A DNA stretch of 64,000 nt, taken from IMG/VR virus record IMGVR_UViG_3300033463_000051, positions 37,083-101,082 of that record; one strand, 5' to 3'. The stretch's first letter is position 1, and the number at the start of each line of letters is the position of its first letter. Source of the stretch: a virus (taxonomy: Duplodnaviria > Caudoviricetes). This document shows positions 3,905 through 58,332 of the stretch, one piece after another. The notes beneath the pieces were generated by a model. It saw only the letters and a program-made list of their open reading frames with translations. It made no database searches and was not told the DNA's origin. The translations under genes and the position numbers were made by a program.

Positions 3905-6900
3905 ATGGCTTCTGGTAGTTTTACAGGAACCACTAACAATTCCAGTATACAGTCAAAAATATCTTGGTCTGAAAGCAATACCAATGTTTCCGCAAATACA
4001 TCCCAGGTGACAGTTACACTAACATATAGCCGTACGAATACGGGATATGAAACGTACGGAACATGGGCGGGGTATTTGGTAATCCAGGCGGATAATAGTA
4101 GCGGAACTACACTTGCCAGATATCCCGCCGAAGGAACTACTTCAAAACAGATAAGTATCACGTATAATTCCAATACGGTTGCGATATCACAGACATTTAC
4201 GATAACGCACAAATCAGACGGAAGCAGAAAACTATATATAACGGCCGAAGGTGGTATTTCAGGAACTTCTTTTACAAGTACATATATAAGTGGAACCGCA
4301 ACCCTCGATACGATACAAACAGCGTATAGGTTAACTCTGACGCACGACAGTTACTCCAGCATTACCGTGCAGAGGGGTGGTGTGGATATCACAAACGGCG
4401 TTATCTATAAGGGTGAAACGCTGACGGTAACCTTTTCTGCCAATAGCGGTTACGCTCTAGCAACACACACGGTTAATGGCACCACTAAAGCATCCGGTAG
4501 CACATTCACTGTGTCTGGCGATACAACCGTCGAAAGCACCGCCGTTAAAGAATATAAACTATCGATCTCAACGACAAACTGTAATGTTACGGTTACCAGA
4601 ACATCATCCCCTATCTCTGGTGCTTCTACCGTATTGGTCAACAACTCAACCCTATATAAGGGGGATGTTATCAGGGTGACATTTTCGCCGACGGACTCCT
4701 CCGAATATGCGCTATCAACGCATACTGTTAACGGAGTAACTAAAAGTTCCGGAAGTAGCGTTACAGTATCTGGAAACGTTGCGGTGGTCGGCTCTGCGGT
4801 ACGTACCTCTACCCTTTCCATAAATGCGTCCGGGTGTACTATAACAGTCAAGAGAACATCCTCTCCTGTAGGTTCGACCGGAACTATCAGCAACGGCGCT
4901 ACTATGTATTATGGAGATGTGTTTACTGTAACGTGTACAGCAAACAGTGGATATACGCCCAGTTCCCCAACTCCCACTGTTACCGGAGCGAGTCTTCCGG
5001 AGGGGGCTACGTCTCCATATACAGTAAATGCTTCGTCGGTAACAGTTACTGCATCTGCCACTCCGGGTGTGTCAACGGTAAGGGCGACAAATGCAAACAT
5101 AGGTTCGGTATCTACCATTACTGTCACAAGACAGAAGAATACTTACTATCATAGTCTGCATGTATACCTTGCGGGCGATGGTCTTCACGATCACAGTACG
5201 GGGTATATAACATCTTCTGGCGGATATCAATTAAATGAAACCTGCTTCCAAGCAACGACCATCTCGTGGACTGTACCTGACGCGTTCTACAAAAGAATGT
5301 CCACGATCACTTCTGCCATATGTACAATCACGTGTAAAACATATACCGGTAACGGCACTGGTGAGATAGGAACGTCTACGTGTACCATGACGGTAACTGC
5401 GACCGGTGCTCCGATAGTAAATGTAACCTTGGCGGATCAGAATTCTAGTATAGTTTCCAATCTAACCGGAGACGCAACTCGAATAATCAAGGGTGTGTCC
5501 AATGCGCAGGTAACGGTCAGCGCAAAGCCTGCTCACTATGTAAGTGCAGATGACGACTACTCTACCATTAAAAGAATATATATAAACGGTGTAAATCAGG
5601 CTCTTCCTACTCCCGAGAGCGGGGTGTATACCAAGAGCAAGACCTTTACAAAGTCCAACGAGTCGAGTTTTTACGCAACCGCCATGGATTCGCGAGGATA
5701 TTCTTCTGCCAAAACATATCCGAGTTCATATAAAGTTATCCCATATATAGCGCCTACATGCAGTATAACGCTTTCGTGGGACTCTATTGGAGAGTATGAT
5801 GCCAGCATTAAACTTGTACTCAAAGGCAGTATATATAGAGGTACGGGCTCGAACCGTTTTGATGGAAATACATCCGCGTCCGGATCTGATAATAGTTTCC
5901 GGTATTTGCAATATAGGTACAGGGAGTCAGGCTCCAGTACATGGACGATAAGTTATACGACCCCAAGCAGTATTTCTTATAATAATACGTCGAACTCATA
6001 TTCAGCCACAGTAATAATACCGGGACTAAGTTATGAGTCATCTTATTCTTTCCAGGTCAGGTATCAGGATCAGGTAATGCGTTATGACGATGGTAGCATA
6101 TTAACTGTTTCTAAAACTTTGTCCAGGGCGAAGCCAATATTTGATTGGGGGAAGAACGACTTTAACTTTAACGTGCCTGTGAATGCCGGAAACGGAATCA
6201 CAACAACGAATCTTACAGCAACCGGCACATTCAATCAACTCTCTGTTGTTGAGGGGCTGAAGTCCGTATCGTACCACGGATCGGGTGACTCAGGGTCATA
6301 TTGTTCTGACGTAAATACAACCTTGCTTCGTGTGACTCCGTACCTTGCTATTTGTCGCGTCGGTTTGCGTGTAATCAATTCAATTCCCCACAGGCAAAAC
6401 ACCATAGAGATTTGCAGATGGGCTGGGTGTACATCAAACTATGCGGGGTATCAGGATGTTTCACTGGAAGACGATAGCGGCACTTTACAGGTAAGATTTA
6501 ACAGGGATTCAAGCACAAGTTCACTTGTAATGACGATCTCTAACTATAGCGGTACGGCTATTGGTGGCGGTACTTATTCGTATGTACGAGCCATGATACC
6601 ACTTGTGACGACCATAAAAGATATAGCCGACATTACCAGTCCTGCTATTACACTTCAACCGGTAAGTACAGCAGCGAATTCGGATACAGTATATTTTGAG
6701 GTTGGAGCAACGGCTCCATCGGGTTCGACTCTTACGTATCAGTGGTGGTATAGTTCGAACGGCAGCACGTGGAATCCAGTTGGAACCGCAACCGGTAGAG
6801 ATACATATCGCCTACAGTTCGGCGCCTCGTCTGGGGCAAACGGACGGTTATATCGCTGCGAAATATCTGATGGCACTACGACCGTAACATCCAATGTTGC

Positions 6901-36290: not shown

Positions 36291-37226
36291 TTATAACAAG
36301 CTTTGTTTCCATCTCTGATAGTCTGTCATAAAACTCTTGGCTAATCTATGCCTGTTATATGCCTTGTTGCTGTACTCCTTATCACCCATACGCTCTTCCG
36401 CTATCCCGGAAAAATCCGGTGGTATTCCCGCAAGTTCCTGTTCGTGCATTCTATAAAAAACACCGGAAAGCCATATGCGATGATAACTAAGTTTCAGGTA
36501 GTTCGTATCAGAGGCTTTATTCTCTTTCATGCGTTTTGACAAAATAGCCTTCATGTTTTTAAGACTCGCGTCAGACTTTGTACCACGTAATAATTGATGG
36601 CCTCCCACGCGGGGCGCAGCCATCGGTACCGCATAGTTTGGGTGATACACTGTAAACGTTTGAAGTTTTACGCACTGAGTTAAAGCCGGAATGGCCTCTC
36701 TATATATTAGGTAGTCTCGATCCTGATAATGAATAACCATGTTAGCAAAATCTATATCGCTATCTAAAATCTTAAAAATATCTTCTTCGGCAATTCCACT
36801 ATATGCAAGCCATACAAATCCACGAATGATAATATCTACGGTATTGCTCTCGACAGGTAAGCATATCCCATCAAGCAGTCTTTGTAGATGGGCGGGATTT
36901 TTAACGGTTTGTTCTCGAATTTTAGAAATATCCCGGGTCGTATCAACATGATACATTGAATCGCATGCACCGGGAATACCATTTGCCATACACCATTTAA
37001 CATACTCTCTTAATATGGTGCTGCGCGTGCGCTGACCTTCGGCTCTTGCCCCTAAAATAGCGTTTAAAGCCGGAAGTATTACCTCTTCTTTTTGGGTGCA
37101 GAAATCGGCACCCCAGGATTCCTCAAAAGGTTCCAGTTTATTAAACGTTTTTAGACAGATTGTTCTGATGCTGTCTTTTGTGCTGTATTCTTTAATAAAC
37201 CGTCCCTTAATTTCAGGATTGTACAT
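36291..37226 (-). CDS. MrpR/YopR-like repressor (degenerate tyrosine-recombinase fold)
   Basis: MYNPEIKGRFI...FEESWGAD...LAYSGI...IWLSGVFY pattern, as recalled for the SPbeta MrpR family. No intact recombinase catalytic set. Confidence 0.5.
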   Translation of the reverse strand: MYNPEIKGRFIKEYSTKDSIRTICLKTFNKLEPFEESWGADFCTQKEEVILPALNAILGARAEGQRTRSTILREYVKWCMANGIPGACDSMYHVDTTRDISKIREQTVKNPAHLQRLLDGICLPVESNTVDIIIRGFVWLAYSGIAEEDIFKILDSDIDFANMVIHYQDRDYLIYREAIPALTQCVKLQTFTVYHPNYAVPMAAPRVGGHQLLRGTKSDASLKNMKAILSKRMKENKASDTNYLKLSYHRIWLSGVFYRMHEQELAGIPPDFSGIAEERMGDKEYSNKAYNRHRLAKSFMTDYQRWKQSLL

Positions 37227-37227
37227 A

Positions 37228-37680
37228 TTAACTCCCCTCGCAGTTCCTATTGTTTATCAGCGAAGCTTTTTCCCAGAGCGTGCGGAGGGTTCTTGGATCT
37301 ATAAACGCTATAGCTGACGTAGCTAAAATATTAGCCGTCGCTATTTCTGCCATATACTCGTGAGATAAGGTCGTAATATAACTACCGATGTACTCCTTCG
37401 ACATCCGCTCCGGATTCTCACAAAGTACCGTACTATCTACTTTTAATCCCGTTTCTGACGCGGGTAAAAATACGTGCGTTGGTTGTGATAATTTTTTGTT
37501 TTTACTTGTAAGGGGTAGCGCAATAATATTTGGACTATAAAAATTACCGGTATTATTTTGGAAAACCAATCCGGGTCTCCACCCCCGCTGTTCGCTTCCG
37601 GTACCGTCAAACTTCATATAATAAACCTCGCCTATTTTCGGTTCAATATGTCTTGAGGTCTCGGGCTGTTTGAAACTCAA
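37228..37680 (-). CDS. MazF/PemK-family endoribonuclease
   Basis: GEVY...GSEQRGWRPGLVFQNNTGN...IIALPLTS...PTHV. Confidence 0.85.
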   Translation of the reverse strand: MSFKQPETSRHIEPKIGEVYYMKFDGTGSEQRGWRPGLVFQNNTGNFYSPNIIALPLTSKNKKLSQPTHVFLPASETGLKVDSTVLCENPERMSKEYIGSYITTLSHEYMAEIATANILATSAIAFIDPRTLRTLWEKASLINNRNCEGS

Positions 37681-37711
37681 ATTTACACCTCCCTCTGTTT
37701 CAGTTTATTAT

Positions 37712-37740
37712 ATTATAACCTTTTATATGGGTTATGTCAA
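37712..37740 (-). promoter_or_regulatory. Consensus sigma-A promoter for the mazF-like/mrpR-like operon
   Basis: TTGACA-N17-TATAAT on the minus strand. Confidence 0.85.
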
Positions 37741-37741
37741 G

Positions 37742-38056
37742 TTAATAATATTGTTTGTCTACAAGCAGTTTATGTGTTATCTCATCCTTACCGTCCCCAC
37801 ATATAATATCCATCTTATATCCTATACCTACAATTTCGTCGCTTATATATACATCCTTTACCGATTCAAAGGACATCGATCCGAACTCAGATACCAGCCC
37901 CACCCTGTCTGGATTGAGACCAGTTACCATTTTTGTAAAAACCAGAGACGCGTTGAATTTACAGTCGTACCTTTGGTTTGATGTATCATATATATAACGA
38001 TATGTGTGCGCCGGGTTAAATATCTTCGCCAAACTATGTATAGATACTTTATTCAC
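37742..38056 (-). CDS. Hypothetical protein
   Basis: 104-aa ORF with SD. Confidence 0.5.
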   Translation of the reverse strand: MNKVSIHSLAKIFNPAHTYRYIYDTSNQRYDCKFNASLVFTKMVTGLNPDRVGLVSEFGSMSFESVKDVYISDEIVGIGYKMDIICGDGKDEITHKLLVDKQYY

Positions 38057-38103
38057 AATTACCGCCCCCTTGACTTTATTGGGAGACTATATTACTATAA
38101 TCA

Positions 38104-38263
38104 CGAGAAGGCAACTTCTCGCGCTGTAATATAATCTGTAGTTTTGTTAGGTTCGTAAGATTTGACAGATACTTCGAGTCTTTCTTCATTCTACATTGTT
38201 TGTTACAGCATTCATGCAAGCACCCCAGGCAGTCCAGTCCACTGCGGGGTGTTTGCTTTATTT
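38104..38263 (+). ncRNA. Candidate small RNA
   Basis: TTGACT-N17-TACTAT at 38070-38098; 5' hairpin cgagaag-gcaa-cttctcg; terminator 38216-38263; no ORF of 60 aa or more. Confidence 0.45.
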
Positions 38264-38279
38264 ACCAACAAAAAATATC

Positions 38280-38363
38280 TTGACAATCGGGAAAACATAT
38301 AGTATATAAGAAACAGCAGCTATCTTTGTTTCTCATAGTAGCACCTTTAGTAGTGCTTGTCAA
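38280..38363. promoter_or_regulatory. Face-to-face promoter pair upstream of the repressor
   Basis: Plus strand TTGACA-N17-TATATA (38280-38308); minus strand TTGACA-N17-TACTAT (38363-38335). Confidence 0.6.
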
Positions 38364-38384
38364 TAACTAATAAGGAGTGTTTCT

Positions 38385-39146
38385 ATGTTTTTTAGTAATA
38401 CACTTAGAAGTCTAAGAACGGAAAACTCTCTCACACAACAACAACTAGCAAAACGTATCGGTGTCGCGGTACAAACTATACGAAGTTGGGAATCGGGTAG
38501 TAAAAACCCGTCTATGCACGCATTAGTATCTTTGTCAAAAATATTCGGCGTTCCTATAGACTACATGGTTGGGACTAGCATTAACAACAAATGCGAAAAC
38601 CCCCTCAGCAACCAAGAGGAAAGCCTTTTGGAAAACTATCGAAACTTAGACGCCATAGGGCGTAAAGCTGTTGAAGCTGTTTGTAGAATTGAACGGCAAA
38701 GAATAAATGTATTTACCAACAACACCCCTAAAAGGTACCTTCCCAAGTATACCTCCCCATCCGCAGCTGGGTTCTCAGCGCCATTAGGCGGAGATGACTT
38801 CGAAATGATACCCGTAGATGATACGGTACCCAGAAATGCCGATTTTGCGATTCGAATCCAGGGCGATAGCATGGAGCCGTACATTATGGACAACGATACA
38901 GTATTCGTAGTTAAACAAAAAACCCTGAATCGCGGAGATGTCGGTGTGTTTAGCGTCAACGACGCGCTTTATTGTAAATTGTATTACACGGACATCAATA
39001 AGAATCTCATATTAGTATCAGCGAATCCCGATCGGCAGGATTCCAACGTTTATGTTAGTGCGGACTCAGATTACTCCGTAATCTGTTTTGGCAAAGTGAT
39101 ACTTAAAAAACCGATACCATTTCCCGAGGGCTTCAGGTATTGTTAA
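38385..39146 (+). CDS. CI/LexA-like repressor (XRE HTH + S24 peptidase)
   Basis: LTQQQLAKRIGV...WESG HTH; AAG cleavage site; GDSMEP; conserved Lys. Confidence 0.9.
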   Translation: MFFSNTLRSLRTENSLTQQQLAKRIGVAVQTIRSWESGSKNPSMHALVSLSKIFGVPIDYMVGTSINNKCENPLSNQEESLLENYRNLDAIGRKAVEAVCRIERQRINVFTNNTPKRYLPKYTSPSAAGFSAPLGGDDFEMIPVDDTVPRNADFAIRIQGDSMEPYIMDNDTVFVVKQKTLNRGDVGVFSVNDALYCKLYYTDINKNLILVSANPDRQDSNVYVSADSDYSVICFGKVILKKPIPFPEGFRYC

Positions 39147-39180: not shown

Positions 39181-39549
39181 TTACCTGACGCAACAAATTG
39201 GATCCCATACGCCACAAAATGTTAGTTTTATACAAATCGTATTCTTTTTTTCGCCATAAGAAAACGAAGCGCTCTGCGACGCGTCGAGTAAAACATAGAT
39301 TGGATCATCTTCTGTGTCAAAAGTTACCTCTGCACAGGTTACCGCGATTGAAATGTCTGTTGTTCCGTCTTCGATTTCAATTTCATAATATTCGCAATTA
39401 TACTTTTTTATCAATGTGTCTATATATGTACAAATAGCCTCAAAGTCTCTGACCTTGTCTTTATTTTCTTCGAAGATTGAAGAAAACCTTTTTGACCCCT
39501 CTTCTATAACTTCTAAAACCGTGCTATAACACCCTCGCGTCTTTGCCAA
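39181..39549 (-). CDS. Hypothetical protein
   Basis: ORF with SD, downstream of 39563-39916. Confidence 0.55.
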   Translation of the reverse strand: MAKTRGCYSTVLEVIEEGSKRFSSIFEENKDKVRDFEAICTYIDTLIKKYNCEYYEIEIEDGTTDISIAVTCAEVTFDTEDDPIYVLLDASQSASFSYGEKKNTICIKLTFCGVWDPICCVR

Positions 39550-40503: not shown

Positions 40504-41685
40504 TCATCCTTTTAATAACCTCACTCCTGCGGAAACTATATACGCAGCCTCCATTACCTCGTCGCTGGTATTAAATCGCGAAAACGAAATCCTTACAGAA
40601 CTACGAGCCTCCTCGGGTGATAAGCCCATAGCTAATAAAACGTGACTCGGATTTTGTTCAAGAGCCGTACATGCAGACCCACCAGATATGCAGACACCCT
40701 TAGAGTCCAGATAAAGGAGTAGTGTTTCTGCATCTACTCCATCAAATCTGATATTTAGTATCTTCCCAGGCCTGACGACCGGAGGCCCGTTAACATGCAT
40801 TATATCTTCCATGTTGCACTCTTTCAAACAATCCCTGAGCGTGTTATGGAACAATTGTTTCATCGATGAAGTGTGTATTACGGTATCATGAAGCTCCTTT
40901 TTCATTATGCTGCAAGCCTCTCCAAAGCCCACGATGCCGGATACATTTTCCGTACCGCCTCTCATCCCAAATTCCTGCACTTTACCTCCGAGGATAAGTC
41001 CACCTTGAACTAGTCTCGGATTTTTAATATAAACCGCGCCGACTCCCTTTGGCCCGTGGATTTTATGGGACGAAAGCGACATAAAATCGCATCCTATTTT
41101 TTTAACATCCAGTTCACTGCATCCTGCCGCTTGTACGCAATCTGTATGGAAAAATATATCACCATCGTCCTTGCAAATCTGATAGATTTCATCCAATGGG
41201 TTTACGGCTCCGGTCTCATTATTTGTATGCATAACAGAGATCATCCCGTTTGGGTATAACTCTTTCCAATACTGAAGTTCCTCTTGTATGTTTTTTGCAG
41301 AAATCGTACCGTCATGTTCTGCGGTAACGTACGATGTCAAAAATCCGGGCAGATCTCCGAGTCTACTTGCGGAACGAATAACAGATTCGTGCTCTATATA
41401 TGTTGTTATTACGTGAACATTCCCGCGCTTACCGAGAATCTCCTTCGCTATCTCAAAAACCGTATTGTTTGACTCCGTTCCTCCGGAAGTAAAGATAATC
41501 TGATATGGTTCGGCATTGATAAAATCCGCTACCTTCTCTCTAGCCTCATCTATGGCTGCTCGTGCTTTTCTGCCTACCGAATATATTGCACCGGGATTAC
41601 CATACGATTCCGTCATAAACGGCATCATAGCATCTAAAACCCGTCTGTCCATTTGTGTGGTGGCTGCATTATCAAGGTAAATCAT
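40504..41685 (-). CDS. Cysteine desulfurase (NifS/IscS family)
   Basis: YLDNAATT, FTSGGTESNN, SSHKIHGPKG (PLP Lys), GGSACT (catalytic Cys). Confidence 0.93.
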   Translation of the reverse strand: MIYLDNAATTQMDRRVLDAMMPFMTESYGNPGAIYSVGRKARAAIDEAREKVADFINAEPYQIIFTSGGTESNNTVFEIAKEILGKRGNVHVITTYIEHESVIRSASRLGDLPGFLTSYVTAEHDGTISAKNIQEELQYWKELYPNGMISVMHTNNETGAVNPLDEIYQICKDDGDIFFHTDCVQAAGCSELDVKKIGCDFMSLSSHKIHGPKGVGAVYIKNPRLVQGGLILGGKVQEFGMRGGTENVSGIVGFGEACSIMKKELHDTVIHTSSMKQLFHNTLRDCLKECNMEDIMHVNGPPVVRPGKILNIRFDGVDAETLLLYLDSKGVCISGGSACTALEQNPSHVLLAMGLSPEEARSSVRISFSRFNTSDEVMEAAYIVSAGVRLLKG

Positions 41686-41814
41686 TTCGTCCTCCTTCCT
41701 GTTAAACATGAGTATTTACTTATATGGTAGCATTTCAACTACATATACTAAACCCCAAACCCGTTGATGTTGTTAGGGTTTTTACGTTCGGCAAATTTCA
41801 ACATATTGAACCCG

Positions 41815-51921: not shown

Positions 51922-53064
51922 TTAACCTCTCAGCAGTTGTTTCATTGTTTGTGGGATGTTCACACTGAACTTATCCCCTATCTTCGTTACTATGTCGTCT
52001 ATTGCCGTGCCTTCGACCATGTGGTAATAATTACGAAGCCCCTCGAGATGCTGTACCTGTTCGAGAGGCCACGGATTGCCGTTTTTCGTATCCAGAGCAA
52101 ACGATGTGAGCATTGCCTGGAATTCCCTCTTCCTCTTTGAACCAATCGTTATCTTGTTGTCCTTATTCAGCATAACCCCAAGATTCCAATTCCTGCCTGC
52201 CGACGAACCATATCTTGTCTTTTCCGTCTTTATGGTGAATGGAGCGTCAAATCGCTTCAGTGCGTCTATAATAAACTGCTGAATCTTTCTAAAATCAAAC
52301 TCATATCTCGACGACACTATAAAGTCGTCTGCATATCTTGTATAAATATACCGCTGACGCTCGAGATCCCTGAACGCGTTTGCAAGACAATGGTCGATTG
52401 GAATCATCATTACGTTCGTTATAAGCGGAGAAATCGGAGTTCCCTGTGGCAGTCCGCCATTCAGAAAAGCCAGTTCTAATGCCTTGCTGAGTTCCTCTCT
52501 TCCGCTCCTATACCTCACCACTTCGGAGAACGGATATATCATTGAGAACATCTTCATCACAAACTCCGGCGTGGTGCTGCCGAAGAAGTTGGACAGGTCG
52601 AACTTGGCAAACCACTTGCTCTCATTTGCCTGGTGACGCTTGACCGCATCCAGTGTGGATCTTTTTCGAATATACGCAAATGCCGATGTATGATATAAAA
52701 CCTTGAACTTATTCTCAAAAATCGTTTTGAGCACGCGGAGTGCGTTCATTAGATCCTCATTCGGAGCGTCTATTTTTCTTAAACCGCCGCTCTTTTTGGG
52801 GATATAAAATTCCCTGTACAGGGCTTGACGCGGAACCTCCCGAAGCGGTTCTACCGAAGCGTTAAATCTTCGTAATGCCTCGATGAGTTCATATACATCT
52901 ATCCGTGAGCGAACCCTGTCACTCGGAGCATCTACCGTATACGTCCTTGTGTTTGTCATATTTGGATTATACGGCTCAAGACTAGCCGTCTCTGTTCCAA
53001 ACAGGAACTCTTCCAGGGACATCTGGTGATACATCGGCGGCTGTAAAACCGTTATATAAACCAT
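51922..53064 (-). CDS. Retron-type reverse transcriptase
   Basis: IPKKSGGLRKIDAP, AFAY, DAVKRH (region X-like), FDLSNFF, LPQGTPISP, YTRYADD, NLG (region Y-like). Start at 53064 behind SD aaggag; 380 aa; no fused domain. Confidence 0.88.
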   Translation of the reverse strand: MVYITVLQPPMYHQMSLEEFLFGTETASLEPYNPNMTNTRTYTVDAPSDRVRSRIDVYELIEALRRFNASVEPLREVPRQALYREFYIPKKSGGLRKIDAPNEDLMNALRVLKTIFENKFKVLYHTSAFAYIRKRSTLDAVKRHQANESKWFAKFDLSNFFGSTTPEFVMKMFSMIYPFSEVVRYRSGREELSKALELAFLNGGLPQGTPISPLITNVMMIPIDHCLANAFRDLERQRYIYTRYADDFIVSSRYEFDFRKIQQFIIDALKRFDAPFTIKTEKTRYGSSAGRNWNLGVMLNKDNKITIGSKRKREFQAMLTSFALDTKNGNPWPLEQVQHLEGLRNYYHMVEGTAIDDIVTKIGDKFSVNIPQTMKQLLRG

Positions 53065-53090
53065 GCCAAAAACCTCTCCTTTCAATAGTA

Positions 53091-53378
53091 TTTGTTTGCA
53101 ATGCATCTTAGAGTAATTACGATCCTTTTCCGGGTAAGATAAGAAGCCACCTCCTTATCGGAAGAAAAGTCAAGTATAAATTTGGCTTATTTGGGTTAGT
53201 TTTCGAGAAATCTTCCACCTTATTGCTGGACATCGCTACCCGACTGGGCAATTCTTCGAGTTCTTCAGGCGGAGCTGCGCGTTTCCTCCTTCTGGTCGTC
53301 TCTTCTTTCCTCTACCGTTTTGTTACTTCCGCTAACAGCGAAAGCCGTCCGAAGACAAATAGCCACTGCAAACTCAAA
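53091..53378 (-). ncRNA. Retron-like msr-msd ncRNA, copy 1 (canonical position upstream of RT)
   Basis: Terminal pairing GUUUGCAGUG/CAUUGCAAAC; G at 53363/53364; GUC-UUCG-GAC hairpin; conserved block at 53305-53345. Confidence 0.82.
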
Positions 53379-53420: not shown

Positions 53421-53672
53421 CTACGCTTTTGCGTACTTTTTCTCAACCATTACGTAGTTTCCGCGCTGATAGGTCTTTACGGGTATTCTTTCATTCTTGA
53501 TAATCTTGTCTACCGCCGCCTTGGCGAGTCTCGCTTCGTGCGTGTCGGTATACTCAAGAGACATGGTCTCTGCGTCGTGGTTTCCGGAAAACTCATGCAA
53601 CGCATCCCACTCCTGAGTGTATAGGTTGTACTTCCCTAAAATCGGGGTATTATACCCCACGCTTTTGAACAT
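53421..53672 (-). CDS. Small hypothetical protein upstream of the retron ncRNA
   Basis: 83-aa ORF with SD. Confidence 0.55.
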   Translation of the reverse strand: MFKSVGYNTPILGKYNLYTQEWDALHEFSGNHDAETMSLEYTDTHEARLAKAAVDKIIKNERIPVKTYQRGNYVMVEKKYAKA

Positions 53673-53820: not shown

Positions 53821-54498
53821 TCATCCCTCGAAACAATCAAGGATTCCGCTAAATCCGTCTATCTGAACAAACCGCCAATAACCTTCTCCCTTGACGAATT
53901 TTATGTAGTTGTTGACCACCATCGCACAGATCAAACGAATCGTGGTCGCCACTCCGAGAACGACCCCGCAAGCGGATACCGGAACCGCAGACTCCGCGTC
54001 TTCATTGGAAAACTGCATCGTGTTCAGCAAATCCTGCTTCGCGTTATAGTCATCCCATCTTGCCGCATAATGCTGTGCCCCTGTCAGCATCGTTCTGACA
54101 TCAAAAACCGCCACAACATCGAGGCAATCCTTGTGAAGTTCCACTATCTTCCTGCGAAGTTCGATATCGTCTACCGCAAGAAAGATATATCCGGACATCA
54201 GTTCGCCCTGCCAGCCCTTTGGCTTAAGCCTGAGAGAATCTGCTATGTCCGGATTGATGTCTACCAGGATGTCCCTGAGTGCTTCGACTTTCGTCTTGCC
54301 CAAATCCTGATTCCTGAACATCTGATTGACTATATTATGAGATTCGACCTTATCAAAATCCCACAGAGTCATCTTTGTGACTCCGCATCTTGCAAGGTTC
54401 TCCGCAATCGTTGAACCTACAGAACCACACCCGACGATATGTATGCGAGAAGTGTCTTTCTCGGGCTGAAAGAACTCGTAAGACTTACTTAGATCCAT
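53821..54498 (-). CDS. ThiF/E1-like adenylyltransferase
   Basis: IHIVGCGSVGS, DFDKVESHNIVNQ, KVEA, AVDD...R, SACG (candidate catalytic Cys). Confidence 0.9.
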   Translation of the reverse strand: MDLSKSYEFFQPEKDTSRIHIVGCGSVGSTIAENLARCGVTKMTLWDFDKVESHNIVNQMFRNQDLGKTKVEALRDILVDINPDIADSLRLKPKGWQGELMSGYIFLAVDDIELRRKIVELHKDCLDVVAVFDVRTMLTGAQHYAARWDDYNAKQDLLNTMQFSNEDAESAVPVSACGVVLGVATTIRLICAMVVNNYIKFVKGEGYWRFVQIDGFSGILDCFEG

Positions 54499-54513
54499 CT
54501 TTAAACCTCCCCA

Positions 54514-55050
54514 TTAAAATCCTACAAATCCGAAGTCTGTATCTTCGGTTTTGTCGCTATCAAAAACTGGCTGTTTTACAGGAATACCGTTGTACAGAAC
54601 AAATGCGTCCATGAAAAACTCGTTGAGTCCAAAATCTTCTGTCTCGGCGTTTTCTATCGCATATTCCGTGGGAACGGGCTCTTCGGGTTCGTGATATTCC
54701 ACGGGTTCTGAGGTTCCGTCCTCGTTGCCATCATCCCAAATCTCGTTCTCATCAGCCCATCCCAAGGCGTCCTCTTTGTAATAGTCAAAGTCATCATCGA
54801 CGCCATACCACTCGTCATATTCACTTATCCTGTAGTAACTATCCGAACTATCATCATAAAGAGAATTAAGCACATCGCGAAGATCCGTCCAGGTGTTTTC
54901 CCTTGCCCACTCTATCAAGTGATCTTCTATCCATTCGTCACGATAGTCGCTGTCGACAATATCATCACACACCCAACATCCGTATTCATTGCAGAAATCC
55001 TTTAATTTCCACCACTCATCAATTTCGTTGATAAAATATTCCCTTGTCAT
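54514..55050 (-). CDS. Highly acidic hypothetical protein
   Basis: Asp/Glu/Trp-rich 178 aa between the JAB and E1 genes. Confidence 0.6.
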   Translation of the reverse strand: MTREYFINEIDEWWKLKDFCNEYGCWVCDDIVDSDYRDEWIEDHLIEWARENTWTDLRDVLNSLYDDSSDSYYRISEYDEWYGVDDDFDYYKEDALGWADENEIWDDGNEDGTSEPVEYHEPEEPVPTEYAIENAETEDFGLNEFFMDAFVLYNGIPVKQPVFDSDKTEDTDFGFVGF

Positions 55051-55062
55051 GATTTTTCCTCC

Positions 55063-55989
55063 TTATCTCCAACTATTGTAGTACCCCGAAGAGTACCCGA
55101 AAGGCCCGTACGGATCGTCGTCATCCTCAAAATCGTCCGTGTAGTACGGTGAATGCCACGCATTCTTTGGCTTTTCGCTCTTATTCTTGTCCTTACGCTT
55201 ACCCTTACGCTTGGTTTCCTTCTCCTCTTTCTTCGGCGTTATGACCGGAAGCACCGAAGAACCCGCCGGAGCAGCGGCCGGCTTTGTGGATACCGTCGTT
55301 GTCGCAGCGGGTACTATGTTGGTTGTCTGTTTCGCATATGTATATGTCTTCGTACGAATCATTTCCTTGGCTGAATCGATAAATTCCTGCATACCCAGCC
55401 CGCCATCGATTATCTCTACCGTGCAATCTGCCGTTTCGAACAGCAGATTCTTCTGCAAGTCATAGATCTTTATCGTTTTCTCTCCACGCTTGTTCCAAAT
55501 CATGAAGATGTAGAACGTATCTCCGCTCATCTGGTCAAGAATCTTGCTATACATCGTGTTGTCCGTGCCGGAAGGTGTCGTTCCCATGTTCACATGCGAG
55601 TGCCCCTGCATTCTCAGATTGTGGAAAACCTCATCGGGCTGCTGAACCAGCCACATTGAGTACTCTTCCTCTATCGCATCGACTGTAGTGCCCGTGATTT
55701 CCTGCGGATATACCAAAATGTCCGAAATTATGTACTCATTTGCCTCTGGATCGTCGCCGCGTTTTGCAATTCCGTGCCAAGCGACCTCTTTGTCGAACTC
55801 CTGAATCAGAGTTTGCATCTTCAGCCATGCGATTTCCTCAAAAAGCACGGTTGCCTTGCATTTTTCATCGGAAAATGACTTCGTATACGTCACTTTTCCA
55901 TCGGACATCTTCGTTTCCGTAAGAGTTTTACGGAAATCCTCACACAAAGCGTCTATATATTCCTGTGTGAGCTTGATTGCCTTTGCCAT
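55063..55989 (-). CDS. JAB/MPN-domain metalloprotease
   Basis: EVAWHG...GHSHVNMGTTPSGTD, matching E...HxH-x7-S-x2-D. Confidence 0.85.
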   Translation of the reverse strand: MAKAIKLTQEYIDALCEDFRKTLTETKMSDGKVTYTKSFSDEKCKATVLFEEIAWLKMQTLIQEFDKEVAWHGIAKRGDDPEANEYIISDILVYPQEITGTTVDAIEEEYSMWLVQQPDEVFHNLRMQGHSHVNMGTTPSGTDNTMYSKILDQMSGDTFYIFMIWNKRGEKTIKIYDLQKNLLFETADCTVEIIDGGLGMQEFIDSAKEMIRTKTYTYAKQTTNIVPAATTTVSTKPAAAPAGSSVLPVITPKKEEKETKRKGKRKDKNKSEKPKNAWHSPYYTDDFEDDDDPYGPFGYSSGYYNSWR

Positions 55990-57462
55990 TTATAAATCCC
56001 CCTCTTTCATCATTCCATTTTCTTTCATATACGCTATTGCTTCTTTCGGAGTTGCCGTTGCTCCATCCGGAAGCTCGATGCATCTCTTCACTGTGTTACC
56101 GTCGATTCCGTACATCCTGCGCATAAACTCTTTCAGCACTGTCGAATCAGTAAAATTCAACGTCCTGCATGATGCGGCGCACTGTTCAATTGCCCCTACA
56201 TAATTATGTTGTCTTAAACATGATTCAACCGTGCTCGTATAATTACCTATGCACCCGAACCGATCTATATGAGGGTTAGACATACGGTCAAAGCAGTCAA
56301 CTCCATACGGATATCCCGTAAGAGGAACGATTCTGCCGGATATGTGTAACGTATATGCCGCACAAGTCTTTATCTTGAATTCCCTGTCGAGGAAAATCGT
56401 TCTCATTAAAGCCCGCATCTCTTTGACCGGTATAATGTTATTACATGCATTCCCGTTTGGCCTATAAATAAAACTTTCTAGGCTGTTTATGACGCTCTCG
56501 ACTTCATCCTCCTTGAAATACTCGAGATAATCCCGCACATAGAACGTCATTTCTCTTCCGTTTAACACATTTTCGAGTGTAAGTTTGGGATTTGCAACGA
56601 AATATGACATAAGTTCGGATTCTCCGGTGTCCATAGACAGTTTTGTCTCGATTCCGAGTATCCGGATATCACAATCTCGCTCTCTTGCGAGATAACTCCG
56701 AATTTCCTCAGTCAGAGAGTCTATGCGATATATGATATCTGCTTTTTCATTTTCCAACTTCTCCAGCTCAACGCGTTCGTAACTATTTTCGAACCCCTGC
56801 AGGAGAGTTTTTATCGCCGTCGCTCTTAAATCGCACAAACTTGCAAACTCTTCCATGCATTTCATGTAATTTTCTGAGGTTCCCTCCCGCAGAGACTCAA
56901 TAAGCCTCATTTCGAGTTCACTTGCCCCGTCTTTCGGGTCAAAATACCATGGGAGGAACGCAAAAATCCCGCACTGCAGATAATGCATCGTCTGAACCGA
57001 CATACTATCCACAAAAACGATCGTACTTTTGATCTTCGGGTTTACAAAGCATAACGTAATGAACTTTTTCCTAAAAAATGCCGTAACTTTCTCGACTCGA
57101 ACCCAATCTTTAAAAATTTCTGTAAATTTCTTCGTTATAAGATCGATTTGAGCCTCATTTCCGTTTGAGTCTCGACAATTCAGAGAGACAATCGTCAGAC
57201 GGTTTGGAATATCCACTGTACTGCCGACCATTGCTTGCAAAACGTCTTCGGCACTGCATCTGGCAACCGTTGAACTGTTATAACTTGAACTTGAGAAGCC
57301 CAAACTCAGCGCGTCCTCATCTTTTAGCCTCGGATAAACCAGTGCTCTCAGCGTACCAAGAAACGACCAGTCTCCGCTCCAGTCACAGCCGACTATTTTC
57401 CCAAACGCTGCGTTCGCAGTTACGGAAGTCAGCGGTGTCGCCCTGATTACATCTCTAAACAA
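55990..57462 (-). CDS. Coiled-coil protein with C-terminal prokaryotic E2-like domain
   Basis: C-terminal NPHIDRFGCIGNY...LN motif like the E2 HPH/HPN...C-x-G site; lies between Ubl and JAB. Confidence 0.6.
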   Translation of the reverse strand: MFRDVIRATPLTSVTANAAFGKIVGCDWSGDWSFLGTLRALVYPRLKDEDALSLGFSSSSYNSSTVARCSAEDVLQAMVGSTVDIPNRLTIVSLNCRDSNGNEAQIDLITKKFTEIFKDWVRVEKVTAFFRKKFITLCFVNPKIKSTIVFVDSMSVQTMHYLQCGIFAFLPWYFDPKDGASELEMRLIESLREGTSENYMKCMEEFASLCDLRATAIKTLLQGFENSYERVELEKLENEKADIIYRIDSLTEEIRSYLARERDCDIRILGIETKLSMDTGESELMSYFVANPKLTLENVLNGREMTFYVRDYLEYFKEDEVESVINSLESFIYRPNGNACNNIIPVKEMRALMRTIFLDREFKIKTCAAYTLHISGRIVPLTGYPYGVDCFDRMSNPHIDRFGCIGNYTSTVESCLRQHNYVGAIEQCAASCRTLNFTDSTVLKEFMRRMYGIDGNTVKRCIELPDGATATPKEAIAYMKENGMMKEGDL

Positions 57463-57492
57463 TCATAAACACCCCTTTTCAAATAAAAATCT

Positions 57493-57577
57493 TGGTGGGG
57501 GATGCCGGATTCGAACCGGCACGGGAAACCCCACGGGATTTTAAGTCACGTTTGTCTACCAATTCCATCAATCCCCC
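57493..57577 (-). tRNA. tRNA-Leu(UAA)
   Basis: Cloverleaf with long variable arm; anticodon loop CUUAAAA; encoded CCA; one anticodon-stem mismatch. Confidence 0.88.
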
Positions 57578-57582
57578 ATGAG

Positions 57583-57606
57583 GAAGCCCGCCATTCGGCG
57601 GGCTTC
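57583..57606. terminator. GC-rich hairpin downstream of the Ubl gene
   Basis: gaagcccgcc-attc-ggcgggcttc. Confidence 0.55.
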
Positions 57607-57612
57607 GTTTAA

Positions 57613-57858
57613 TTAGGCGTTTTTCGCCTCAACCACATTGGTGAGGAATACCGCAGATCCGTCCAGACCGAGTTCAGCAAAGGACTTGCCGAACTGATCG
57701 CGAGGAACAAGGCGACCATTTATCGCCCAACCGCCCTTGGATACGTCGAAACCGCTGTTGGTTCCGTAATCGGCGAGAACCTCGTTGACTGTCTTATCCG
57801 CACTGATTATTGTCTGCGGAGTCCTGTCGAGAGTTGTGGAAACTACGATTTTAATCAT
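57613..57858 (-). CDS. Ubiquitin-like (beta-grasp) protein
   Basis: 81 aa; strand-strand-helix-'INGRLV'-'KSFAELGL'-strand pattern with free tail AKNA; clustered with E2/JAB/E1. Confidence 0.7.
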   Translation of the reverse strand: MIKIVVSTTLDRTPQTIISADKTVNEVLADYGTNSGFDVSKGGWAINGRLVPRDQFGKSFAELGLDGSAVFLTNVVEAKNA

Positions 57859-57901
57859 GATTCATTCTCCTTTTCATTAAATATAATATGTATAATTTGT
57901 T

Positions 57902-57923
57902 GGGGCGCCCGAAAGGGCGCCCC
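57902..57923. terminator. GC-rich hairpin
   Basis: ggggcgccc-gaaa-gggcgcccc. Confidence 0.55.
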
Positions 57924-57930
57924 TTTCACA

Positions 57931-58332
57931 TCACGCTACCGTGATGTTTGCGAGGATAGCAGCCTTCTCGGCAGCAATCTCCGCCAGAACCGCGGGAACC
58001 CTCTCCTCAATCTTATTGAGGTTCAGGATGGCTACGCCAAGTTCCTCGGCAACAGCCTCACGGATGTCATCAACATCTCCTGCGTTGTTCAGAAGAGTGA
58101 TGGTGGCAAATTTGTTCTCATCGTGGGTTTCCCCACCAAACTCAGCAGAGAACCTGCCGATAGAACCCGGATTCCTGTTGGTCGTACCAATGCAGAAAAC
58201 CGCATCCTTGTCATCTTCGCCGCCCATGAGAACAAGAGCGTCCGGACGATACTTGCCGACTGTCTGGATGTCATCCAGCGTCAGTTCGGAAGTGATGACT
58301 ATCGCCTCACCTACGATCGTTACTTTTGCCAT
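57931..58332 (-). CDS. Hypothetical protein upstream of Ubl
   Basis: Strong SD; C-terminal amphipathic helix. Confidence 0.65.
   Translation of the reverse strand: MAKVTIVGEAIVITSELTLDDIQTVGKYRPDALVLMGGEDDKDAVFCIGTTNRNPGSIGRFSAEFGGETHDENKFATITLLNNAGDVDDIREAVAEELGVAILNLNKIEERVPAVLAEIAAEKAAILANITVA

Follow-up and report, generated by a model that had tools for sequence, protein, structure and literature searches.

Prokaryotic systems that combine E1 and E2 enzymes, a JAB protease and a ubiquitin-like modifier (Ubl) have so far been characterised as anti-phage weapons, as is the case of Bil and type II CBASS (cyclic-oligonucleotide-based antiphage signalling system), or are suspected of being such (Bub). 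Here, a complete-looking set of these components owned by a virus is analysed. It lies on the minus strand of a window of 64,000 nt, the whole stretch of DNA that was studied (positions 37,083 to 101,082 of the IMG/VR virus record IMGVR_UViG_3300033463_000051, which is 101 kb long and 85% complete). A sequence-only reading of this DNA had described a Ubl conjugation cluster composed of an 81-aa beta-grasp-like protein, a 490-aa coiled-coil protein (hereafter p490), a JAB protease with an intact metal motif, an acidic protein, and a ThiF/E1 protein with an SACG motif. All these co-oriented minus-strand open reading frames (ORFs) were recovered at the positions given for them, and their motifs were re-translated from the coordinates. 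In our judgement, chances are slightly better than even that the cassette is a phage-borne conjugation system in which the Ubl passes from an E1 to an E2-like protein. The features of its core are located in the window as follows:

57613-57858, minus strand: Ubl, 81 aa, ubiquitin-like beta-grasp protein with the C-terminus ...VVEAKNA
57583-57606, no strand assigned: GC-rich 10-bp hairpin after the Ubl stop codon, read from the sequence
about 57900-57925: second GC-rich hairpin, after the stop codon of the upstream gene p139 and before the Ubl promoter/ribosome-binding site, read from the sequence
55990-57462, minus strand: p490, 490 aa, TTG start
56797-57462, minus strand: p490 N-terminal alpha/beta domain, residues 1-222, from an AlphaFold2 (AF2) model
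56635-56793, minus strand: p490 long single helix, residues 224-276, probable coiled-coil linker, from the AF2 model
55993-56625, minus strand: p490 C-terminal UBC/RWD-like domain, residues 280-490, candidate E2-like carrier, from AF2 and VIA-align
56245-56277, minus strand: p490 motif NPHIDRFGCIG, residues 396-406 (N396-P-H398-I-D-x3-C404-x-G406), proposed active site, re-translated
55063-55989, minus strand: JAB/JAMM metalloprotease, 308 aa, with HSHVNMGTTPSGTD; domain at about residues 1-215, from its motif and weak profile matches
55561-55602, minus strand: JAMM motif H130-S-H132-x7-S140-x2-D143, with the Glu68 codon at 55786-55788
53821-54498, minus strand: minimal E1 (ThiF family), 225 aa, with PVSACG; GCGSVG at 54415-54432 and C177 at 53968-53970

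Comparison with described systems

Bil (BilABCD, 'ISG15-like', operon type 6d of Iyer et al. 2006) resembles the phage cassette in having separate genes for the Ubl, an E2-fold protein, a JAB/JAMM protease and an E1, and in both cases some Ubl homologues carry short overhangs past the conserved end. However, Bil belongs to a bacterial defence island and its Ubl ends in Gly, whereas the cassette is part of a phage genome and its Ubl is a single beta-grasp domain ending in Asn-Ala. Moreover, the E1 of the cassette has one domain of 225 aa, and the E2-like domain makes up only the C-terminal third of the 490 residues of p490, after a conserved N-terminal domain and a coiled coil; neither the Ubl nor p490 matches any defence-system hidden Markov model. 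Thus, the cassette is comparable to Bil in the way it works, but the non-Gly terminus, the lack of a sequence match and the phage location indicate that it is not a member of Bil.

Similarities to type II CBASS concern the enzymes: the E1 matches CBASS E1-E2 models, Cap2 is among its solved relatives, and the JAB protein matches CBASS-type JAB models weakly (3e-4). Cap2 reportedly accepts termini other than Gly-Gly. Nevertheless, Cap2 is an E2-E1 fusion that acts on the C-terminus of a CD-NTase (PMC10097602), whereas the corresponding functions of the cassette are unfused and its substrate is a dedicated small Ubl. No match to a CD-NTase (SMODS) was detected in the 101-kb genome, 85% complete, and this absence, together with the separation of the E1 and the E2-like protein, sets the cassette apart from type II CBASS.

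The archaeal SAMP/UbaA/HvJAMM1 and the Thermus TtuB/TtuC systems also combine a small beta-grasp protein with a minimal MoeB/ThiF-type E1 and a JAMM protease, and in them both sulfur transfer and conjugation are possible, which would fit the presence of a NifS gene in the phage. Their modifiers, however, end in Gly-Gly and need no E2, whereas a UBC-like protein is an obligatory neighbour in the cassette. As for Bub, it shares with the cassette the condition of a diverged prokaryotic E1/E2/Ubl set that escapes standard family models. Bub forms Ser oxyesters, its components being the fused proteins BubAB and BubCD, an E1 that lacks a catalytic Cys, and a Ser-His protease (PMC11601596); in the cassette, by contrast, whose genes are unfused, Cys177 of the E1 and Cys404 of p490 are invariant and a JAMM-type protease is encoded. 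The Cys nucleophiles and the JAMM-type protease thus distinguish the cassette from Bub. The cassette is not a PRTRC system either: its E1 scored below the cut-off of the PRTRC ThiF model TIGR03736 (23.4 bits versus 144.75).

For phages, the literature yielded a single pairing of a Ubl with a JAB protein, namely the lambda/T1 tail-assembly proteins TAPI (Ubl) and TAPK (JAB+NlpC) (PMC1779556). This pair belongs to a tail module and has neither E1 nor E2, whereas the cassette is located in the non-structural, replication-side arm of the phage and encodes an E2-like protein as well as an E1. In open-access papers and preprints, we found no account of a phage cassette that combines E1, E2-like, JAB and Ubl genes. 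The new elements here are the ownership by a phage, the very wide occurrence, a modifier ending in Asn-Ala, the minimal form of the E1, a multidomain E2-fold protein of a new type, and a retron-type reverse transcriptase (RT) beside the cassette.

The conserved core and its predicted proteins

The window has the gene content of a phage, including tail proteins, a DNA polymerase, a DnaB-type helicase and the anaerobic ribonucleotide reductase NrdD, as well as lysogeny-type genes coding for a CI/LexA-type repressor and a MazF-like protein. Three related records are classed as proviruses by IMG/VR, and the contigs of metagenome-assembled genomes (MAGs) that bear homologues are labelled Ruminococcus, Oscillospiraceae, Acutalibacteraceae and other Clostridia. 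On the basis of these lysogeny-type genes, provirus-classed relatives and Clostridia-labelled homologues, the virus is read as a temperate phage of gut Clostridia, with hosts of the Oscillospirales/Ruminococcus type.

A search for p490 homologues returned more than 500 clusters at about 45% identity. In the 55 related IMG/VR viral loci, the p490, JAB and E1 genes were found together without exception, a p139 homologue was present in 52, and a retron-type RT adjoined the cassette in 53. A homologous 75-aa Ubl gene precedes p490 in every locus that extends that far, and the same gene order was found on 16 MAG contigs; overall, the order p139-Ubl-p490-JAB-E1-retron RT is kept in about 70 phage or MAG loci. 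Among them is the uncultured faecal phage MT835544.1 (locus L057; p141, Ubl, p491, JAB, E1, RT), whose p490 homologue is only 24% identical. With regard to the two viral loci lacking an adjoining RT, in one (L021) the sequence ends inside the E1 gene, and in the other (L052) the RT gene lies about 6 kb further downstream, as it does, on the same strand, in the MAG locus L061. Indeed, wherever the sequence extends that far, including L052, L061 and the locus with 24% identity, an RT gene is found no more than about 6 kb downstream on the same strand. A tblastn search with p490 gave a single match, to one uncultured faecal phage, and a megablast search of the region against GenBank phages gave none.

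Insertions between the core genes are tolerated: an acidic gene between the JAB and E1 genes, and an RNase H1 gene or tRNA genes between the Ubl gene and p490. Since these three elements vary between loci, the core consists of the Ubl, p490, JAB and E1 genes, with p139 and the RT gene as constant neighbours. The recurrence of this gene set is far beyond chance.

The Ubl of this phage ends in ...E-A-K-N-A, and the family consensus is ...VVKADNA. A word-based homologue search started from the 81-aa protein returned nothing but the query, since it shares about 32% identity with the main family; the family was instead reached through an alignment of relatives from syntenic loci, in which 75-aa ORFs at the same place align with the window protein at 23-35% identity. 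This alignment-based search gathered 2143 clusters. The last two residues, N80 and A81, are nearly invariant (alignment A2). Among the 120 best family clusters, 97 end exactly in ...DNA and the remaining 23 carry 1-8 extra residues after it, the overhangs being variable (A, AA, S, G, K, HQ and longer ones). Overhangs after DNA are also present in the Ubl copies of loci L035, L039 and L052, and that of MT835544.1 ends in ...DNALAA. Ubl precursors show this pattern of a fixed end that some members overrun; similarly, the authors of the Bil study reported 12 BilA homologues with overhangs beyond the conserved Gly (10.1101/2023.09.04.556158).

Regarding structure, the predicted fold agrees with the beta-grasp claim of the sequence-only reading. 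Once its own phage relatives were set aside, the nearest structures to the ESM Atlas model of the exact 81-aa protein (pTM 0.59, a moderate value) were ubiquitin, UBX and DDI1-UBL domains, at TM scores of 0.65-0.72 over 73-80 residues, and the top feature match of the model was a cluster with Rad60-SLD/ubiquitin Pfam families. Pfam ThiS (PF02597) matched neither the Ubl nor any other protein of the genome, and a PDB profile search with the Ubl alignment gave nothing significant. We accept the 81-aa protein as a putative beta-grasp modifier whose functional end is probably ...Asn-Ala. The gene has a strong ribosome-binding site (AAAGGAGA), and the hairpins on both sides would set it apart as an expression unit of its own; together, these elements suggest that the Ubl is expressed separately from the enzymes and at a higher level.

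The p490 family comprises 2213 representatives at the 50% identity level (E <= 0.001), with a constant architecture and without any annotated member, and a BFVD search added a single distant relative (A0A8S5PR93, uncharacterised). The AF2 model of the full-length protein (mean pLDDT confidence 88.9) consists of the N-terminal domain, a long helix at residues 224-276, which fits the coiled coil proposed from sequence, and the C-terminal domain. A wide VIA search with this model was filled by coiled-coil matches to the helix, and the C-terminal domain was therefore folded alone, on 24 homologues (alignment A3; pLDDT 93.2, pTM 0.88). In the wide VIA-align search with this domain, at least 45 of the top 50 matches were UBC, RWD or UEV domains (Z 7.1-4.2). 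They were headed by the RWD domains of the SEA complex (Z 7.1), Knl1 (6.6) and Listerin (6.5), and included FANCL (5.9), the RWD domains of RNF25 (5.7) and GCN2 (5.4), Ubc9 (5.6) and about 20 more E2s or UEVs down to Z 4.2. The bacterial E2 from an E1-E2-Ubl complex (8tyz_C) aligned with Z 5.6 over 86 residues (root-mean-square deviation 3.3). In a second VIA comparison, the UBC, RWD and UEV classes stood above unrelated folds (Z <= 3.4). It is this near-exclusive enrichment of one superfold, and not any single score, that leads us to assign a UBC-type fold, with two helices inserted between strands 2 and 3. A PDB profile search with the C-domain alignment gave nothing significant, and the best 150 representatives matching the C-domain profile were full-length members of the p490 family only, with no remote link to a named E2 family among them.

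The conservation of p490 was examined in 142 representatives, each from a different cluster at 50% identity and sharing 31-45% identity with p490. Only D31, H398 and C404 are invariant in all of them, N396 and G406 reaching 99%, and the His and the Cys are also kept in the 24%-identical homologue of MT835544.1. Judging from the order of secondary-structure elements, the loop bearing H398 and C404 lies between the last meander strand and the next helix, as does HPN...Cys in E2s. The spacing from His to Cys is 6 in p490 and 10 in classical E2s. A conserved His-plus-Cys pair was the feature by which bacterial E2-like domains were first recognised (PMC1779556). Whether p490 has a UBC fold was a point on which the sequence-only reading had been made to depend, and the predicted fold of the C-terminal domain, of UBC/RWD type and with H398 and C404 invariant, speaks in its favour. 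If the cassette conjugates at all, p490 would fairly probably act as a catalytic E2-like protein.

In p490, the N-terminal domain matches the E2-like domain in conservation (D31 invariant, H160 and W172 99%, R39 97% in the same representatives), and it may therefore be more than a passive extension, possibly a second active site or a binding site. Its fold matches in the second VIA comparison were weak (MoaB/MogA/gephyrin/CinA-like, Z 4.3-5.5) and are not interpreted, and a search of the ESM Atlas with this domain gave nothing.

The E1 is a solid member of the ThiF family (Pfam PF00899, 3.8e-23, 82 bits with a cut-off of 28.1, residues 16-216 of 225). Its best solved relatives are UBA5, Uba1, MoeB, MccB and Cap2, its best NCBIfam match is the short ThiS-adenylyltransferase ThiF, and CBASS E1-E2 models match it (best 5.5e-18, PADLOC) only in the Rossmann region, residues 16-86. 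GCGSVG, D110, R115 and C177 are invariant in 20 relatives (alignment A4, 76% mean column identity), C177 being placed about where C184 of ThiF and C187 of MoeB lie, and we presume it to be equivalent to them. The E1 thus has the nucleotide-binding GxGxxG, the Mg-binding Asp and the conserved Cys ahead of the GV(x)xG helix that characterise the superfamily. The protein is a minimal single domain, with neither a rhodanese domain nor a zinc-binding tail.

Family models of the JAB protein give weak matches (Pfam Prok-JAB 14 bits with a cut-off of 25; PADLOC JAB 3e-4), and its sole PDB profile matches are to Rpn11, at E 0.24 and with the catalytic residues in register. Nevertheless, E68, H130, H132, S140 and D143 are invariant in 20 relatives (alignment A5), and the metal motif is thus intact, as the sequence-only reading had noted. 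The C-terminal ~90 residues (about 216-308; 55063-55340) are of low complexity, basic and then acidic. This tail runs from a Thr/Ala/Pro-rich segment through a Lys-rich one to a DDDDPYGPFGY-like end, and relatives keep its composition and not its sequence; it may serve for docking or for nucleic acid binding.

Conjugation and the alternatives

Gene content, conservation, predicted folds and motif invariance make up the observed basis of the conjugation model; the chemistry of each step, the direction in which the Ubl is transferred, and whether there is a target and what it may be are all inferred. The beta-grasp protein would be the modifier, with the Ala of the conserved ...D/K-N-A as its mature C-terminus. 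Where 1-8 extra residues are encoded, the JAMM protease would trim them, and it would probably also reverse conjugates. The ThiF-type E1 would adenylate the terminal carboxylate of the Ubl and take it as a thioester on Cys177, from which the Ubl would pass to Cys404 in the UBC-like C-domain of p490, assisted by His398 and Asn396. The N-domain and coiled coil of p490 may position the target, an amino group of which would receive the Ubl; the target could be either a phage or a host protein. This model is favoured because of the family match and invariant residues of the E1, the fold and fixed DNA end of the Ubl, the invariant JAMM motif, and the UBC-like fold of the p490 C-domain, whose H398 and C404 are two of only three invariant residues in the protein. 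It is further favoured by the fact that the four genes stay together in about 70 loci despite inserts, and that rhodanese, PP-loop thiolase, MnmA, PAPS reductase and NifU were not found in the genome.

Several observations weigh against this model. p490 belongs to no recognisable E2 sequence family, as it has no match in Pfam, NCBIfam, PHROG or PADLOC, and no E2 family came up even at E <= 10 when 24 homologues of the C-domain were scanned with Pfam. Foldseek searches against the PDB at E <= 0.001 found nothing with either full-length p490 or the C-domain. The VIA Z scores of 4.2-7.1 are below 8, a range that VIA calls common; non-catalytic RWD domains outscore true E2s; and the helix-then-RWD layout resembles that of kinetochore RWD proteins. 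The Ubl does not end in the conserved Gly or Gly-Gly of Ubl modifiers, its terminus being conserved but Asn-Ala. A NifS-type desulfurase, present in 19 of the 19 related genomes checked, fits a sulfur relay. Lastly, all the cassettes found belong to one syntenic phage lineage, and gene linkage therefore represents fewer independent observations than the locus counts. The interpretation proposed from sequence is partly supported: its list of parts stands, the assignment of its E2 is based on fold, and a sulfur-carrier reading persists beside it.

In that reading, which we hold to be possible but rather unlikely, the E1 would adenylate the Ubl, sulfur from the phage NifS would yield a C-terminal thiocarboxylate, and the sulfur would be delivered to a nucleoside, tRNA, cofactor or small molecule. 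The JAB protein would mature or recycle the carrier, as in the carrier/JAB pairs CysO/Mec+ and QbsE/QbsD, and p490 would be a sulfur-relay or sulfur-using enzyme. The idea is kept alive by the fact that the phage lineage encodes NifS: in the window, a NifS/IscS-type cysteine desulfurase of 401 aa is located at 40504-41709 on the minus strand (TIGR03402 3.5e-106, Aminotran_5 1.2e-76). The ThiF-type best NCBIfam match of the E1 and the presumed position of its conserved Cys agree with it, as do the many tRNAs of these phages, which include Gln(UUG), Lys(UUU) and Glu(UUC), whose U34 is normally thiolated. However, known sulfur carriers end in Gly-Gly, not in Asn-Ala, the genome has no Pfam ThiS match, and searches of it for rhodanese, NifU, a TtuA/TilS-type PP-loop thiolase, MnmA and PAPS (3'-phosphoadenosine 5'-phosphosulfate) reductase/DndC found none. 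In addition, the NifS gene is about 12 kb from the cassette, beside the lysogeny module, and its product could serve Fe-S enzymes such as the activase of the phage NrdD, and none of the known sulfur relays makes use of a UBC-like domain with an invariant His and Cys. Urm1, SAMPs and TtuB carry out both sulfur transfer and conjugation, so the two readings are not mutually exclusive.

A doubtful alternative is that the E1 alone conjugates the Ubl, in the style of SAMP/UbaA/HvJAMM1 or TtuB/TtuC, and that p490 is a non-catalytic RWD adaptor, a scaffold or a substrate, whose Cys and His would serve for metal binding or structure. The best fold matches of p490 are indeed non-catalytic RWD domains that follow coiled coils, in a layout like its own (those of the SEA complex, Knl1 and Listerin, together with Spc24/25), and it lacks an E2 sequence signal. 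Inactive E2-fold domains do occur in bacterial Ubl operons, but these inactive versions lack the conserved Cys (PMC1779556), whereas C404 and H398 are among the most conserved residues of p490 and lie in the predicted loop where E2s carry their active site.

It is improbable that the cassette acts in counter-defence by mere interference, either with the JAB protein stripping host Ubl marks (Bil-type marks on tail proteins, or cGAS-like enzymes primed by Cap2) or with the Ubl and E1 diverting host enzymes as decoys. Attack on phages by host Ubl systems is documented (10.1101/2023.09.04.556158; PMC10097602) and the cassette lies among small acidic early-type genes, but a deconjugase alone would then suffice, and yet four genes with intact catalytic residues and a conserved Ubl end are retained across the family. 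Finally, chemistry of the MccB/PaaA type, in which the E1 homologue would modify the C-terminal Asn region of the Ubl (by succinimide formation or nucleotidylation) after the JAB protein removes the last residue(s), is very improbable: MccB (2.4e-7) and PaaA (2e-6) are among the solved relatives of the E1 and the penultimate Asn is nearly invariant, but UBA5, Uba1 and MoeB outscore MccB, the substrate is a folded beta-grasp protein of 75-81 aa rather than a short peptide, Ala at the terminus and the Asn before it are equally conserved, and the N-terminal peptide-clamp domain of MccB is absent from the 225-aa E1.

Neighbouring genes and significance of the cassette

Besides its core, the region contains the following features, all on the minus strand:

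57931-58332: p139, 133 aa from Met7, upstream neighbour of the Ubl gene
57493-57577: tRNA-Leu(taa) between the Ubl gene and p490, absent from the sequence-only reading
54514-55050: acidic 178-aa protein, optional insert between the JAB and E1 genes
51922-53106: retron-type RT, downstream neighbour of the cassette

The p139 protein, with its true start at Met7, has conserved KYRP and GGEDGKEP motifs and an NITVAQ end. Its gene is directly upstream of the Ubl gene, including in the distant locus of MT835544.1, and no family match was found in Pfam, NCBIfam, PHROG or PADLOC. The protein may be either a partner of the cassette or one of its substrates. The acidic protein exists as the sequence-only reading described it (30% Asp+Glu), but it was rejected as a core part since it occurs in 20 of the 55 viral loci, the JAB gene abutting or overlapping the E1 gene elsewhere. 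The slot between the Ubl gene and p490 is variable in content: among 15 relatives, it holds tRNA-Leu(taa) in eight, tRNA-Met in two and no tRNA in five, and for this reason the tRNA-Leu was rejected as part of the system. In locus L039, a Cys-rich ORF of 227 aa with repeated CxC...CGC and without a Pfam match (5099-5782) lies between the Ubl gene and the tRNAs, a further sign that the slot accepts mobile inserts. An 83-aa ORF at 53421-53672 in the window was also discarded, as it is not conserved in relatives.

The RT matches the NCBIfam retron St85 RT model (7.9e-51) and PADLOC RT_II-A (6.7e-47). In seven viral loci (L019, L022, L026, L028, L030, L038 and L046), an RNase H1 gene is inserted between the Ubl gene and p490 (at about 5045-5765); the copy in L022 has a hybrid-binding domain and an RNase H domain (Pfam 2.7e-21 and 2.5e-10), with the RT gene just downstream. 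RNase H1 is the class of enzyme that matures retron multicopy single-stranded DNA (msDNA). The constancy of the RT gene downstream of the cassette, down to 24% p490 identity, and the RNase H1 inserts of some relatives underlie a speculative and rather improbable idea, namely that the Ubl cassette and the adjacent retron-type RT with its non-coding RNAs form one functional unit of the temperate phage. This could be a retron with a protein-tagging output, or a tagging system that modifies or is gated by the RT or msDNA, in either case for superinfection exclusion or counter-defence. No description of a link between retrons and Ubls was found in open-access papers and preprints; if true, such a unit would connect two systems never linked before.

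At a greater distance, the lysogeny-type module (36291-39146) comprises the CI/LexA-like repressor gene (38385-39146, plus strand; HTH_3 and Peptidase_S24), a gene for a MazF/PemK-like toxin (37228-37680), one for a protein with an MrpR N-terminal domain (36291-37226) and an adjoining tRNA-Gln. Downstream of the NifS gene, a 122-aa ORF (39181-39549, minus strand) showed a match to a YcaO-related thioamidation model (5.7e-4) that is far below the cut-off and probably due to chance.

The cassette is common, with 2213 p490 representatives and 2143 Ubl clusters found mostly in gut and rumen metagenomes and in MAGs of the Ruminococcus/Oscillospiraceae type. One member of the Ubl family is on record in the genome of an isolate, Ruminococcus sp. 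AF12-5. If the cassette conjugates, it would make a viral Ubl pathway tractable, with a modifier that ends in Asn-Ala instead of Gly and a minimal 225-aa E1. It would also add an E2-fold enzyme whose fusion partner, a new conserved domain, perhaps serves it as a substrate selector, and it would raise the question of which host or phage proteins are tagged by gut phages. If, instead, it works as a sulfur relay with the phage NifS, it would represent a new kind of phage-encoded thiolation pathway. Since the cassette is built largely from undescribed protein families, either outcome would annotate thousands of phage genes now called 'hypothetical'.

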